From a bacterium (lineage in GTDB: Bacteria > UBP15 > UBA6099 > JAJRTR01), in the NCBI GenBank assembly GCA_024278215.1, contig JAJRTR010000165.1, forward strand, positions 1 through 57,205: 57,205 nt of DNA, read 5' to 3'. Under the pieces are notes generated by a model that worked only from the letters and a program-made list of their open reading frames with translations, made no database searches and was not told the origin of the DNA. Below are positions 1,314-25,824 of this stretch, piece by piece. A program made the position numbers and the translations under genes. Position 1 is the stretch's first letter, and each line of letters starts with the position of its first letter.

Positions 1314-1332
1314 GTCGTATGTTGTTTCCAGA

Positions 1333-1409
1333 CCGCTTTCCTCTCGCCGGCATTATCCGTATCAGGTTCGAGGGGTCTGTTCTCAGCCGTTTTCCGGCAC
1401 CCCCAGCGG
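1333..1409 (-). ncRNA. TPP riboswitch
   Basis: Minus strand reads CCGCTGGGGGTGCCGG...CGGCTGAGA...ACCC.TCGAACCTGATACGGATAATGCCGGCGAGAGGAAAGCGG, with the GCTGAGA, ACCTGAT and GATAATGCC.GCG core, upstream of thi genes. Confidence 0.95.
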
Positions 1410-1458
1410 ATAATCAACAGTATATCATCCGGTGATTGCTTTTTCAAATTACATATCC

Positions 1459-9228: not shown

Positions 9229-9302
9229 GCGTCCGTAGCTCAACTGGATAGAGCATCTGACTTCGGATCAGAGGGTTGCGGGTTCGAATCCTGCCGGGCG
9301 TA
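9229..9302 (+). tRNA. tRNA-Arg(UCG), CCA not encoded
   Basis: GCGTCCG acceptor stem, D arm TAGCTCAACTGGATAGAGC, anticodon arm TCTGA-CTTCGGA-TCAGA, T loop GGTTCGAATCC. Confidence 0.97.
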
Positions 9303-22505: not shown

Positions 22506-23324
22506 ATGACTGAACAAAGTAATATGAAACCGGAAGGCGGAAAAATGCTTACACGCGATCTTGAGATACTGGGCAGGCGCCGATGCCGCCTCTGCTGGAT
22601 AAAAGAAGACGAACAGACCGCCGAAAAGCTCGAGGAAGAATCCCGCAAACATCCCGAAGACGGCGAACTGCACATCAAACTTGCCTGCGCATATCTCAAG
22701 CTATGCAAATACGACGAGTCGATCAAAGCTTCAAAGACAGCTATAGAAAACGGTATGGACAATGATCGCGGGTTCGCGCAACTGGGGCGCGCACTCATAG
22801 AATCCGGCCGGCTCGAAGAAGGCCGCAAAGCCAGTCTCCATGCTTTTAAAATCAATTCCGACAATATCACCGCGCTGCTGAATCTCGCCGTTTACAATTC
22901 GCTTAAAGGTGATTATCAGACAGCCATGGACTATTTCGATATTTCCGAGAAGGTCGCCCCGTACTACCACCGCCTCTACGGTGAGCGGGGGCTGCACTAC
23001 GCCCGTGTCGGCATGATTAACGAAGCGCTTGAAGACCTCAAGACAGCGATAAAGTATGACCCATGCAATCACACACATTATCACAACATGAGCGACATAT
23101 ATATGAAGAACGGCATGATGGACGACGCCGAGAAGACACTTCTCAAGTCAATCGACAATCGACCCGGATGTGCCGAATCATATCACAGCCTCGCTCAGAT
23201 ATGTGCCGAAAAAGATAATCTTGAAGAGGCTGTGAAAAATATCGACAGGGCCGTCAGGCTTCATCCTGAAAATGAAGAATTCCGGGAATACCGCAGGCAA
23301 CTCAAAGAACAAAAACAATCATGA
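22506..23324 (+). CDS. Tetratricopeptide repeat protein
   Basis: About seven TPR-like units (for example EALEDLKTAIKYDP, EAVKNIDRAVRLHPEN). Confidence 0.85.
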   Translation: MTEQSNMKPEGGKMLTRDLEILGRRRCRLCWIKEDEQTAEKLEEESRKHPEDGELHIKLACAYLKLCKYDESIKASKTAIENGMDNDRGFAQLGRALIESGRLEEGRKASLHAFKINSDNITALLNLAVYNSLKGDYQTAMDYFDISEKVAPYYHRLYGERGLHYARVGMINEALEDLKTAIKYDPCNHTHYHNMSDIYMKNGMMDDAEKTLLKSIDNRPGCAESYHSLAQICAEKDNLEEAVKNIDRAVRLHPENEEFREYRRQLKEQKQS

Positions 23325-23544
23325 ACCGATTGCGGCCGACCGCAGACAAACAGAGTTTTGAAAGTGTCGCATAAGCAACACAGAGTGTCGGTTCCGGTTG
23401 GCTATTTGAATGTTTTTTACCTGTTACACTATGAAAAAAAGACATATCAAATATAATATTGGTTGCTGTATAAAGAGAATTATTTAAGCGGAAAACCCCT
23501 CAACCTGGAAGGGATGACTGCTGTATTGGTATATAAAATACATT

Positions 23545-24945
23545 ATGCCGGATGAAATAAACAACAACGATTTCCTGGAAAAAGATGAGCTTTCCATACT
23601 CGATTACTTCCGCATAATCAAAAAATATAAATATCTCATTGCCACCGTGTTTATCCTGATCGTCACCACCTCGTTTGTTATGAGTTTCTTCGAGGAACCT
23701 GTTTATGAGACAACATCGGTGATTATCGTCAGCGGCGAGCGTGAGCAGGATACTCCCATTTATTCGGCATATCAATCGATCCGTGAAGCTGTCGATCCAA
23801 GAACAATGAAAATGCCGACATCTGAAGAGATCAATCAGTTTTATGTCGCCCTGGTGGAATCTGATAAGTTCGCCCGCCGGGTAGCCTGGAATATCGACAG
23901 GAAACTACACCCGAAAAAACCGGTTCACAAGCTTGACAACAGCTACGTGATTCCCGATTATCTCAAGTTTGACCTTATAGTGAAAAGCAAAGAACCCAGA
24001 ATTTTGAGGATCACTGTCAGCACAAACGACGCGAAGCTGGCCGCCATGATCGCGAATGAATATTTCTATGTCATGGAAGACTATCTCATGGCCAACGAAC
24101 TCTCCGCAGCTACCCGCAAACGCGTTTTTATAGAAGACCGCCTTGTGTCCGCAAAAGAAGAATTGTCGAAAGCGGAGGAAGCCGGGAAAGAATTCCTGGA
24201 AAAGTATGGAGTCATTTCCGATCCGAAAGCGGAACTGACATCGAACCTTAATGTCTACACCGATCTGCGAAAGCAACTCGCCCTGGCGCAGGTTACAATG
24301 GCGGCTCAGATATCCCGGCGCGACGCCATCATCGAGGCGGGCATGCCCATGGATGGTGAAATAGCTGTTGTTTCACCCGATGTTTATCTGCGCGATCTTG
24401 CTATCGTTCACCTCAGGAACATGCTTGTGGAAAAAGAAGTGGAACTCACACGCGCCAAGCAGCTCTATTACCACGATCACCCGAAAATCCGTATGCTCAG
24501 GGAAGACCTCGATAGTCTCAAGCTGAAGTTTAAGGAGGAGGTCAAGAACTACAACAAAACAGAAGTGCTCTCCCAGGACATCAACATCATCAGCATGAAC
24601 GCCAAAGTGGAAGACCTCGAAAGATTCATTACCGACTACAATTATAAATTCGCGCAGTTTCCTTCCCTTTCAAATATGTATCAGCGTCTCTTCAGGGACA
24701 TCGAGCGAAAAACGGAGTTGGTCAACTACCTGAAGTCGGAATACGAGACGTCGAAGATCGAAGAGGCGCGCCAGAAGCCTTCTGTTGAAATGCTGGATGA
24801 AGCACCCCTTCCCAAAGTTCGCAGCCATCCGCGCCTCAAGTTGAGACTGCTCATTTCCGCCGTACTCGCTCTATGCCTCGGCGTGTGCCTTGCCTTCTTC
24901 TTCGACTACATCGAGCGCGAACGCCTCAGGGAAAACAGTTATTAG
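23545..24945 (+). CDS. Wzz/GumC-like polysaccharide co-polymerase
   Basis: ELSILDYFRII plus TM, EPVYETTS, coiled coil with DHPKI, LDEAPLP...P plus C-terminal TM; no kinase domain. Confidence 0.85.
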   Translation: MPDEINNNDFLEKDELSILDYFRIIKKYKYLIATVFILIVTTSFVMSFFEEPVYETTSVIIVSGEREQDTPIYSAYQSIREAVDPRTMKMPTSEEINQFYVALVESDKFARRVAWNIDRKLHPKKPVHKLDNSYVIPDYLKFDLIVKSKEPRILRITVSTNDAKLAAMIANEYFYVMEDYLMANELSAATRKRVFIEDRLVSAKEELSKAEEAGKEFLEKYGVISDPKAELTSNLNVYTDLRKQLALAQVTMAAQISRRDAIIEAGMPMDGEIAVVSPDVYLRDLAIVHLRNMLVEKEVELTRAKQLYYHDHPKIRMLREDLDSLKLKFKEEVKNYNKTEVLSQDINIISMNAKVEDLERFITDYNYKFAQFPSLSNMYQRLFRDIERKTELVNYLKSEYETSKIEEARQKPSVEMLDEAPLPKVRSHPRLKLRLLISAVLALCLGVCLAFFFDYIERERLRENSY

Positions 24946-24978: not shown

Positions 24979-25132
24979 AAGCTTGATTCGTGTGTAAAAA
25001 ACCGCGGATGACATTTGGTAATAGCCAATAAGCAACAATAGCGAACTCGCAAAAGATCTTTTTTGTGCATTTCCGCCGACTTTGAAAACAACGGCTGTAT
25101 TGGGTATGACTAATTACACGCGAATCAAGTTT
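24979..25132. mobile_element. Putative MITE family E (154 bp, single copy)
   Basis: Inverted ends AAGCTTGATTCGTGTGTAA / TTACACGCGAATCAAGTTT (17 of 19 match); no clear target duplication. Confidence 0.55.
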
Positions 25133-25157
25133 AGTATCAATTAAACCTTATTGTTTT

Positions 25158-25186
25158 TAGCCTGCATTGGTGAAATATGCGGGTTA
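25158..25186. repeat. 29-bp palindrome family D
   Basis: TAGCCTGCAT-TGGTGAAAT-ATGCGGGTTA. Confidence 0.75.
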
Positions 25187-25223
25187 CAAGTGTGACTGGA
25201 CACTACACTTTAAGTTCCATCAA

Positions 25224-25232
25224 TGTTATAAT
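25224..25232 (+). promoter_or_regulatory. Extended -10 promoter of the pentapeptide-repeat gene
   Basis: TGTTATAAT (perfect TGnTATAAT), followed by GGGGGGAG RBS at 25261-25268. Confidence 0.55.
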
Positions 25233-25278
25233 GCTATGAATTCAAGTCGGTAAACATTTCGGGGGGAGTTGAATCATT

Positions 25279-25710
25279 TTGAAATTATCAAGATTTGTAA
25301 GCGTGGGTGTCAACAACAACGGTCTCATTAACATCGGGATCAGGAACAAAGGACTCGTAAACATCGGGATAGTGAATGAAGGGCTGCTGAATCATGGTGT
25401 TGTCAACAGGGGCCTTGTCAACAGCGGCATCGTCAACCGGGGCGGCTGGAACCTGGGTGTCGTGAACAGGGGCTTCTTCAATGCGGGACTGGTCAATCTC
25501 GGCATCGGCAAAGGCGTCTTCAGCTACGGCCTCGTCAACCGTGGCCTCGTGAACAAAGGCATAAAAAACCGCGGCTTTGTTAATATCGGTGTTGTCAACA
25601 GGGGAACGATAAACCACGGACTCGTTAATCGCGGGCTGATAAATTCAGGCGCGTTCAACCTCGGCATTATCAACAGGCGGCGTACCTTGCAACAGCTCGC
25701 GGACGCTTGA
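25279..25710 (+). CDS. Hypothetical N-x-G-x-x pentapeptide-repeat protein
   Basis: 22 NxGxx units in 143 aa, synonymous codons vary between units, TTG start with a strong RBS. Confidence 0.8.
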   Translation: MKLSRFVSVGVNNNGLINIGIRNKGLVNIGIVNEGLLNHGVVNRGLVNSGIVNRGGWNLGVVNRGFFNAGLVNLGIGKGVFSYGLVNRGLVNKGIKNRGFVNIGVVNRGTINHGLVNRGLINSGAFNLGIINRRRTLQQLADA

Positions 25711-25824
25711 AGTATTCTGTTTTTATCTTGTATTATCCTCATTATAAAACGACATGGCCGTAGCCGCGTTGCGGCGCGTTGTTTCCGTGCGCGGCGGCTT
25801 TTCGAAGATGAAGAAAGCGCGTCT

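Follow-up and report, generated by a model that had tools for sequence, protein, structure and literature searches.

A small cationic N-x-G repeat protein of an uncultured bacterial phylum is a variant of the Pentapeptide_2 family and probably a very narrow beta-solenoid

Introduction

What can a bacterium do with a free-standing protein that consists almost entirely of one five-residue motif? The question is raised by a gene on a stretch of 57,205 nucleotides (nt), hereafter the window, which covers positions 1 to 57,205 of contig JAJRTR010000165.1 of GenBank assembly GCA_024278215.1 and comes from a bacterium of a small uncultured phylum (GTDB lineage Bacteria; UBP15; UBA6099; JAJRTR01). The gene (25279..25710, +) starts with TTG, stops with TGA and encodes 143 amino acids (aa) of a Pentapeptide_2-type repeat protein. 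A first-pass annotation, made from the sequence without database searches, had proposed a beta-solenoid or a self-templating amyloid, or possibly the precursor of a modified peptide. We asked whether the gene is real, what its true repeat is, to which family it belongs, how its product may fold and what the product might do. We find that the protein is a doubly hydrophobic, cationic variant of a known repeat family that lacks a characterised structure and function. The explanation of its role that we favour, with a confidence somewhat short of even, is a cytoplasmic, self-associating, cationic beta-solenoid rod that would serve as a small nucleotide-independent scaffold.

Results

A six-frame search of the window's own genome found a single copy of the gene. 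We recovered four distinct orthologues, with identities of 57-64% to the window protein, from the 12 other genomes of the phylum (13 genomes in all, the same order being the whole phylum) and from scans of metagenome contigs. They come from genomes G007 and G008 and from the contigs L007 and L009; the contig scans also returned the same two genome loci again. The protein thus has homologues, on which the first-pass annotation had made its case depend. The five distinct proteins are 115-149 aa long and pairwise 57-77% identical. In all of them a GGAG-type site lies a few bases ahead of a start with M-K-[L/I], and the reading frame is kept. Nonsynonymous differences per site (pN) among the five genes amount to 0.14-0.30 and synonymous ones (pS) to 0.64-0.88, with silent sites saturated; dN/dS is 0.10-0.21 in the five of ten pairs for which dS could be computed, and the remaining five pairs are saturated. 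The repeat gene is real and under protein-level selection, as had been surmised earlier: replacement differences are far rarer than silent ones.

These figures bear directly on the possibility that no functional protein is made here, the open reading frame (ORF) having arisen by chance in repetitive DNA or as a by-product of a gene on the other strand. Such an origin would sit well with two observations, namely that none of the five family sequences is found by exact look-up in a collection of 15 billion proteins and that antisense ORFs of 50-109 aa overlap the gene. It is nevertheless close to refuted by the saturation of silent sites alongside few replacement differences, by conserved start signals, by the divergence of the DNA repeats and by the presence of one orthologue in the ESM Atlas, which holds the G008 protein letter for letter. 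In addition, the sense frame is the only one open over the whole gene at all five loci; the antisense ORFs are fragments whose frames differ from locus to locus. Because the ESM Atlas has the G008 orthologue and the 15-billion collection does not, absence from a protein catalogue is weak evidence of rarity, and catalogue searches can miss this repeat family completely.

Two antisense ORFs of 109 aa (25288-25617, -) and 72 aa (25524-25742, -) overlap the gene in the window. They appear to be by-products of the repeat gene's codon lattice. Since they are shorter and in other frames at the orthologous loci, they are not conserved genes, and a gene caller could pick them by mistake.

The window protein carries 22 N-x-G units whose spacing is exactly five residues within each of two blocks. 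Block 1 (25315..25509, +; residues 13-77) consists of 13 N-x-G-hydrophobic-hydrophobic pentads. A linker of nine residues (25510..25536, +; residues 78-86) breaks the lattice and carries a conserved G-[V/A]-[F/L]-S-Y motif; the distance from Asn to Asn across it is 14 in the window protein and, by hand count, 15 in the G007 and G008 proteins. Block 2 (25537..25671, +; residues 87-131) adds nine pentads, with Arg at position 2 of four successive pentads of the type called B below. The C-terminal tail (25672..25707, +; residues 132-143) has a basic cluster followed by a short predicted helix and is not kept in all members, the L009 protein ending without it. Twenty N-x-G units have another at +5, compared with a maximum of 3 and a mean of 0.15 in 10,000 shuffles of the protein, so the lattice of 22 units that had been read off the 143 aa is well founded. 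Across the five proteins, 103 of the 105 Asn-anchored units have Gly two residues on and the other two have Ala.

The regularity of the protein is not that of a recent microsatellite expansion, which the divergence of the repeat units at the DNA level rules out: the 34-nt copies are 62-74% identical to the reference copy, and no more than 2.9 copies, at 82%, are recognised by Tandem Repeats Finder. The earlier remark that codons differ between units agrees with these values. A higher-order duplication had also been noted, and residues 15-50 and 89-124 are indeed identical at 25 of 36 positions (10 of 21 off the N/G lattice). This pair is, however, only the best of 18 in-register pairs, with runners-up at 24, 23 and 22, and a 10-residue super-period accounts better for the supposed 36-residue duplication than a single segmental duplication does.

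The super-period is seen when the variable positions of pentads are compared at increasing distance. Their identity is 0.29-0.34 at lags of 2, 4 and 6 pentads and 0.08-0.12 at lags of 1, 3 and 5. This even/odd difference was reached in none of 2000 shuffles, a count that overstates independence in that the five proteins are relatives, and it has the same sign in each of the five. Given the contrast between even and odd lags, the true repeat is a decapeptide. Pentads alternate between type A, N-x-G-I-V with an uncharged x (L, I, T, S or N), and type B, N-[K/R]-G-L-x; Lys or Arg occupies position 2 in 26 of 53 type-B pentads and in 10 of 50 type-A pentads. In the shortest member of the family (L009 426-770, 115 aa) the five-residue register is broken by one extra residue in the third pentad, which may reflect either a genuine bulge or a mistake in the assembly.

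The family, which the first-pass annotation did not recognise, can be named. The window protein matches the hidden Markov model of PF01469 (Pentapeptide_2), a described repeat type of no known function, over four stretches with 83.4 bits (E 9.8e-24; cut-off 26.4), and the four orthologues score 67.2-83.2 bits, so all five family proteins pass. PF01744 (GLTT repeat; cut-off 21 bits) is matched as well, with 43.0 bits by the window protein and 29.9-43.5 by the orthologues; this match reflects periodic Gly and hydrophobic residues, is weaker than that to PF01469 and says nothing on function. A Pfam scan of the window protein to E 10 listed only these two and a sub-threshold PF23234, and no other domain passes its cut-off, in keeping with the earlier description of a stand-alone protein. 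NCBIfam gave nothing meaningful for it. When PF01469 was searched against all 13 genomes of the phylum, only the three repeat genes matched.

To place the family within PF01469 we compared its 103 units with those of 14 other PF01469 proteins (three PPE proteins, five proteins with a DUF7666 domain and six others). Position 4 is L/I/V/F/M in 90% of the family's units and in 9-45% of those of the other proteins, and position 5 in 83% as opposed to 15-28%. Position 2 is Lys or Arg in 35% of units, compared with 6% or less in the other 14, and L/I/V/F/M in a further 29%. The five proteins have isoelectric points (pI) of 10.3-12, with basic residues exceeding acidic ones by 7 to 15, and grand averages of hydropathy (GRAVY) of +0.18 to +0.45.

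The resemblance to the mycobacterial PPE-MPTR repeat, with V/I/L at positions 4 and 5, that had been pointed out from the letters is substantiated by the PF01469 match and by these compositions. The two share an Asn-x-Gly lattice every five residues, a predicted very narrow beta-solenoid and the lack of a known function. They differ in architecture: the three PPE proteins carry the PPE domain (PF00823) at 183-214 bits, whereas the window protein has no match to it up to E 10, and the window family measures 115-149 aa whereas PPE-MPTR proteins run to hundreds or thousands. The three PPE proteins also have L/I/V/F/M at only 45% and 28% of positions 4 and 5, and Lys or Arg at 1% of positions 2. 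The window family occurs in a small uncultured phylum with 13 species-level genomes, whereas look-alike clusters in the Atlas are mostly from Actinomycetota. A second set of proteins combines DUF7666 (PF24703) with Pentapeptide_2 and resembles the window family in its diversified N-x-G pentads, 22-37 per protein. In contrast to the window protein, these bear a DUF7666 domain at the N terminus and are extended at the C terminus; D/N/S predominate at their position 4 (9% L/I/V/F/M), and position 2 is Lys or Arg in 6%.

Among the proteins returned by our searches, P0042, P0073, P0089, P0140 and P0144 have this layout, being about 300-450 aa long with an N-terminal DUF7666 followed by 22-37 N-x-G pentads. 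The sole match of the window protein in PHROGs is phrog_14105, of unknown function (E 8.4e-15 over the repeat part), a likeness at the level of the lattice only; phrog_14105 may be the DUF7666 and pentad family. A full-text search for 'DUF7666' returned no paper.

Searches of protein collections yielded relatives of the repeat type but no close relative of the protein. A word-indexed search of 5.8 billion proteins (78-251 aa) gave 190 candidates, none at E <= 0.001, and an exhaustive search of 1.84 billion representatives gave 606 matches at E <= 0.001. Among the 150 of these that were listed, 33 were examined fully or at the matched region, and a script checked all 150 for N-x-G periodicity, displaying the first 40 residues of those with 8 or more periodic units. 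Every match examined was a different five-periodic repeat (PPE, DUF7666, Q-x-G or other non-Asn lattices, or near-perfect microsatellite-like sequence), and no small orthologue was present among the top-scoring matches listed. Three of 388 genomes outside the phylum (401 scanned) gave weak matches (E 2e-12 to 5e-11), which were rejected as their translations lack the Asn lattice. Viral contigs yielded 276 pattern matches, none of which was confirmed as a relative, and a literature search found no paper on a small basic N-x-G-hydrophobic-hydrophobic protein. One small ORF of an unrelated genome (L031; G064:C21, oriented nt 1492-1827) has a Gly at every fifth position with A/I/V/M in between, lacks Asn, and resembles P0142 from the protein search; it may represent another small glycine-lattice repeat family.

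With an alignment of the five sequences as input, AlphaFold2 predicts continuous beta structure for residues 17-73 of the window protein. In its best model the mean predicted local distance difference test score (pLDDT) is 55.6 overall, 68-86 for the 10-residue blocks of block 1 and below 50 for block 2. The G008 orthologue is modelled with more confidence (mean 77.3), at 79-92 for residues 1-80 and at 65-71 for block 2, which is again continuous beta. The linker is a low-confidence segment in both models, and the tail helix is predicted at residues 133-142 of the window protein and 135-138 of the orthologue. The ESM Atlas model of the G008 orthologue has a mean pLDDT of 0.81 and a predicted template modelling (TM) score of 0.72; its structural neighbours in the Atlas all have TM <= 0.32. 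From these models, the window protein is probably a very narrow all-beta solenoid, and the beta-solenoid of the first-pass annotation is the predicted fold.

An exhaustive structural aligner ranks narrow beta-solenoids and beta-rolls first. YadA-like heads match with Z 8.9-10.6 at root-mean-square deviations (rmsd) of 6.8-7.8 Å; the head 1p9h, for instance, gives Z 9.5 over 97 residues at 7.7 Å, and the entry 9gh4 gives Z 10.6 over 131 residues at 7.1 Å. The curli subunit CsgA gives Z 5.3 and 7.6 with the two models. The Tenebrio antifreeze protein superposes at 2.5-2.7 Å over 71-72 residues, and in the first model 71 consecutive residues fall onto 82 of its residues at 2.7 Å. We take the coil of the antifreeze protein to be 12 residues long, and the ratio of 71 to 82 would then be that expected of a 10-residue coil.

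A coil of this length agrees with published predictions. Akdel et al. (2022; PMC9663297) describe, in the part of their article concerned, a ten-residue coil for PF01469 from AlphaFold2 models, which would make it the shortest known beta-solenoid, and PF01469 is among the families for which Pratt et al. (bioRxiv 10.1101/2024.10.30.621056) state that the results of four prediction methods concur. An excerpt of an article from 2016 (PMC4858275) gives the structure of the PPE-type pentapeptide repeat as unknown. Our searches of PDB sequences with the family profile and with two other PF01469 proteins found no solved structure with the repeat, the only match being a periodic region of DotG (E 8e-7).

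The classical pentapeptide repeats (PF00805; Qnr, MfpA, AlbG) share with the window family the five-residue periodicity and a beta-helical fold, here a predicted one. Their consensus has a hydrophobic central residue in every pentad, and proteins of the Qnr/MfpA/AlbG type are acidic DNA mimics with 20-residue square coils. The window family differs in that the central hydrophobic position is variable or charged and the proteins are strongly basic; PF00805 is not matched up to E 10, and AlbG is a structural match at Z 2.4 only.

The same models have to be weighed against a quite different structure, an in-register cross-beta functional amyloid or an aggregation-prone peptide, for which the monomeric solenoid would be an artefact of prediction. 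Asn, Gly and beta-branched residues abound in the protein, AlphaFold2 is biased to solenoids when given repeats, for each protein four models out of five are poor, and CsgA is among the structural matches. We consider this structure unlikely all the same: the 10-residue alternation of two pentad types in all five proteins fits a defined coil better, the net positive charge (7 to 15 excess basic residues) disfavours in-register stacking, the ESM Atlas solenoid model is also confident, and neither a signal peptide nor curli-type export genes nearby were seen.

The location of the protein in the cell was approached through its hydropathy. The window protein has no stretch free of N/D/E/K/R/H/Q longer than 8 residues, and its highest 19-residue Kyte-Doolittle mean is 0.99. 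This crude scan, made with no dedicated signal-peptide predictor, shows no signal-peptide-like or membrane-helix-like segment, as the first-pass annotation had said of the signal peptide. Since nothing resembling an export signal or a membrane helix appears in it, the repeat protein is probably cytoplasmic.

Charge and hydropathy together also raise the possibility that this cationic protein is membrane-active. It could be a leaderless bacteriocin-like toxin or a factor that remodels membranes, its target being the membrane of its producer or of a competitor. The strong cationic charge combined with high hydrophobicity (GRAVY +0.18 to +0.45, pI 10.3-12) would suit such an activity, and so would the patchy distribution of a solitary gene that has start signals of its own. 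Yet an all-beta protein of 115-149 aa is unlike known leaderless bacteriocins, and no immunity, transporter or lysis gene recurs alongside. PADLOC gave no match at E <= 0.01 for the window or L004 protein and a marginal one for the L005 protein (E 0.0028), and in PHROGs nothing but a functionally uncharacterised repeat family is matched. The protein also evolves about as fast as a housekeeping neighbour (61% identity to the G008 orthologue compared with 56% for the FGGY kinase). We regard a membrane-active role as improbable.

Neighbouring genes were compared over several kb of flanks at three loci, representing the lineages of the window, of G008 and L007, and of G007. In the window the gene lies between one for a Wzz/GNVR-type protein upstream and those for an FGGY sugar kinase and a PRA isomerase downstream. 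A metallophosphoesterase gene precedes and an HhH-GPD glycosylase gene follows it at the G008 locus, L007 having the same downstream gene, and at the G007 locus it lies between genes for a STAS protein and a metallo-beta-lactamase-fold protein. The latter neighbour was not found in four related genomes. None of these genes hints at a pathway, a mobile element or a system for modification or secretion. At the two closest orthologous loci (L007 574-600 and L004 5420-6208) an endonuclease III-like (HhH-GPD) gene follows the repeat gene; its ATG lies about 10 nt past the repeat-gene stop in L007, suggesting co-transcription of the two there.

The neighbourhoods tell against the first-pass idea that the protein is a repetitive precursor from which a ribosomally synthesised and post-translationally modified peptide is derived. 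Apart from small size and a repetitive sequence nothing speaks for it: no neighbour family is shared across the three lineages, none of the neighbours is a recognisable peptide-modifying enzyme, and there is no leader-core organisation, the lattice beginning at residue 13. This idea is disfavoured and very improbable.

Copies of the gene were found only in 3 of the phylum's 13 genomes and on two contigs from metagenomes. Between the window and G008 the repeat protein (61% identity) has diverged about as much as the adjacent FGGY kinase (56%), which fits vertical descent with losses. Orthologues of the FGGY kinase in G001 and G008 have no repeat gene upstream, and the gene upstream of the G008 kinase is unrelated to the window's Wzz-like gene.

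A sporadic gene of this kind may also serve an accessory function, and one such function deserves attention: the protein would act, as a monomer or dimer, as a binding module capping or coating a single specific partner (a protein, a lipid or a hydrophobic inclusion), with the hydrophobic faces as the ligand surface and no self-assembling scaffold. The same surface features, hydrophobic faces and a cationic edge, would apply to it, and its occurrence in 3 of 13 genomes and average codon adaptation are what an accessory role would lead one to expect. We nevertheless find it doubtful. No neighbour conserved across lineages points to a partner, and the hydrophobic residues run along the whole rod of 22 pentads, beyond the need of a discrete site.

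Discussion

The properties described above can be assembled into a model of how the protein might work, in which the small scaffold that we favour would arise from the repeat itself. The protein would form two stacked blocks of a very narrow beta-solenoid, with one coil made of two pentads (10 residues). The invariant Asn and Gly would make the turns, and the two adjacent hydrophobic residues of each pentad would lie in short strands. Because successive residues of a strand face opposite ways, the tiny core would be filled by one hydrophobic residue from each pentad and the other would have to face outward, giving greasy flat faces. Of the two edges, that at the type-B turns would bear a ladder of Lys and Arg, and that at the type-A turns would be uncharged. 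A lone rod of this kind would not be stable in water, and its faces could be buried in a side-by-side bundle or an end-to-end filament, while the cationic edge would be presented to an anionic partner such as a membrane lipid, a nucleic acid or another polyanion. We infer the outward-facing residue, the self-association, the partner and the cellular role from the periodicity, composition, charge and models.

Several known systems behave, in outline, as this model would have the protein behave, and an analogy can be drawn with the way in which bactofilins act, curli subunits stack and YadA heads pack. Judged by its sequence, the window protein belongs to none of these three families. Bactofilins, with which we compare it only in how it might work, are small cytoplasmic proteins with a beta-helical core and short terminal tails, a fold that is a predicted one for the window protein. 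They differ from it in repeat motif, and its predicted coil is much shorter; no bactofilin model was listed in the Pfam scan to E 10. According to excerpts of two reports, bactofilins form nucleotide-independent filaments and bind membranes (PMC12448750; bioRxiv 10.1101/617639).

The YadA-like heads of trimeric autotransporter adhesins, left-handed parallel beta-rolls, are narrow two-sheet solenoids and the best structural matches. YadA heads pack into trimers through hydrophobic faces. In contrast to these adhesins, the window protein has no signal-peptide-like segment, stalk or membrane anchor (no such Pfam family was listed), and the two differ in repeat length and motif; the matches themselves have a high rmsd and a Z near the background for repeat models. 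The curli subunit CsgA consists of Asn/Gln-flanked strand-arc-strand repeats and stacks head to tail by extension of the solenoid, as described in part of PMC13721041. Its repeat of about 22 residues compares with 10 here, and curli are exported and have csg partner genes, whereas the window protein has no signal-like segment and no such neighbours. The Pfam scan of the window protein to E 10 gave no curlin-repeat match.

A number of results weigh against a self-associating scaffold of this fold. Only the best of the five AlphaFold2 models is confident for the G008 orthologue (mean pLDDT 77.3, 58.3, 55.1, 51.0 and 26.9), and those of the window protein reach 55.6, 51.4, 47.2, 33.0 and 30.7, with residues 76-143 below 50. 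Pratt et al. report, in the excerpt cited above (bioRxiv 10.1101/2024.10.30.621056), that AlphaFold2 over-predicts beta-solenoids for perfect repeats. Foldseek against the PDB returned four rows at E <= 10 and none at E <= 0.001, and the structural matches with Z of 9-10 have an rmsd of about 7 Å, near the stated background for models of repeat proteins. The 10-residue length of the coil and the direction of the side chains are inferred from the literature, the periodicity and the ranges of the alignments. With regard to function, no neighbour family recurs across the three lineages to indicate a pathway, and searches failed to find the gene in 10 of the phylum's 13 genomes, whose completeness is 67-97%, so that it is dispensable. 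The codon adaptation of the gene, at the 61st percentile, does not suggest an abundant structural protein.

If the favoured model were right in all its parts and were taken further, the protein would be a free-standing minimal beta-solenoid with a ten-residue coil that polymerises without nucleotides into cytoplasmic filaments or sheets on a membrane or on nucleic acid, and would represent a new class of cytoskeletal or functional-amyloid-like polymer found in one uncultured phylum only. This extension is speculative, and we would not rate it above a minor possibility. The more general interest of the family lies in its size. The Pentapeptide_2 repeat accounts for a large share of mycobacterial PPE proteins, yet the PDB searches gave no solved structure for it, and a pure-repeat protein of 115-149 aa, made by a harmless bacterium of the environment, is a compact object in which the predicted shortest beta-solenoid coil could be tested. 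Its doubly hydrophobic, cationic version may show how a solenoid becomes a self-associating or surface-binding element. Should it prove to be merely one more repeat protein of a rare lineage, the gain would be a modest one in annotation.

Additional features of the locus

An in-frame TGA at 25270-25272, three codons upstream, makes the TTG at 25279 the earliest possible start of the repeat gene. The first-pass annotation had credited the gene with its own promoter and ribosome-binding site, and both motifs are where it had placed them: an extended -10-like motif, TGTTATAAT (25224..25232, +), lies 47 nt upstream of the start codon, and a Shine-Dalgarno-like GGGGGGAG (25261..25268, +) lies 10 nt ahead of it. 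Both are motif matches only, and the TGTTATAAT site is absent from the output of a two-hexamer promoter scan. A TGnTAnAAT-type motif is found upstream of three of the five family genes (the window gene and two of its four orthologues), and a GGAG/GGGAG/GGGGGA-type site occurs just ahead of the start in all five.

Downstream, between the repeat gene and the FGGY kinase gene, is a weak terminator-like hairpin (25757..25775, +) whose 8 base pairs include 5 G-C pairs and whose T tract is poor; the region has 3 terminator-like sites compared with 1.8 expected from shuffles. The codon usage of the repeat gene is ordinary for its host (61st percentile among 2520 long ORFs, with ribosomal proteins as reference), and for this gene codon adaptation is uninformative as a proxy of expression; a look-up of sequencing runs listed none. 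Two stretches, 23200-23800 and 25000-25400, have a G+C content of 0.38-0.40 in surroundings of about 0.5-0.6; the first lies at the intergenic region and start of the Wzz-like gene, and the second in the 333-nt intergenic region upstream of the repeat gene. Rfam has nothing near the repeat gene. Elsewhere in the window there are a thiamine pyrophosphate (TPP) riboswitch at 1321-1414 (-), which scores 68.8 bits where the gathering score is 54.3, and a tRNA gene at 9229-9302 (+), both ordinary.

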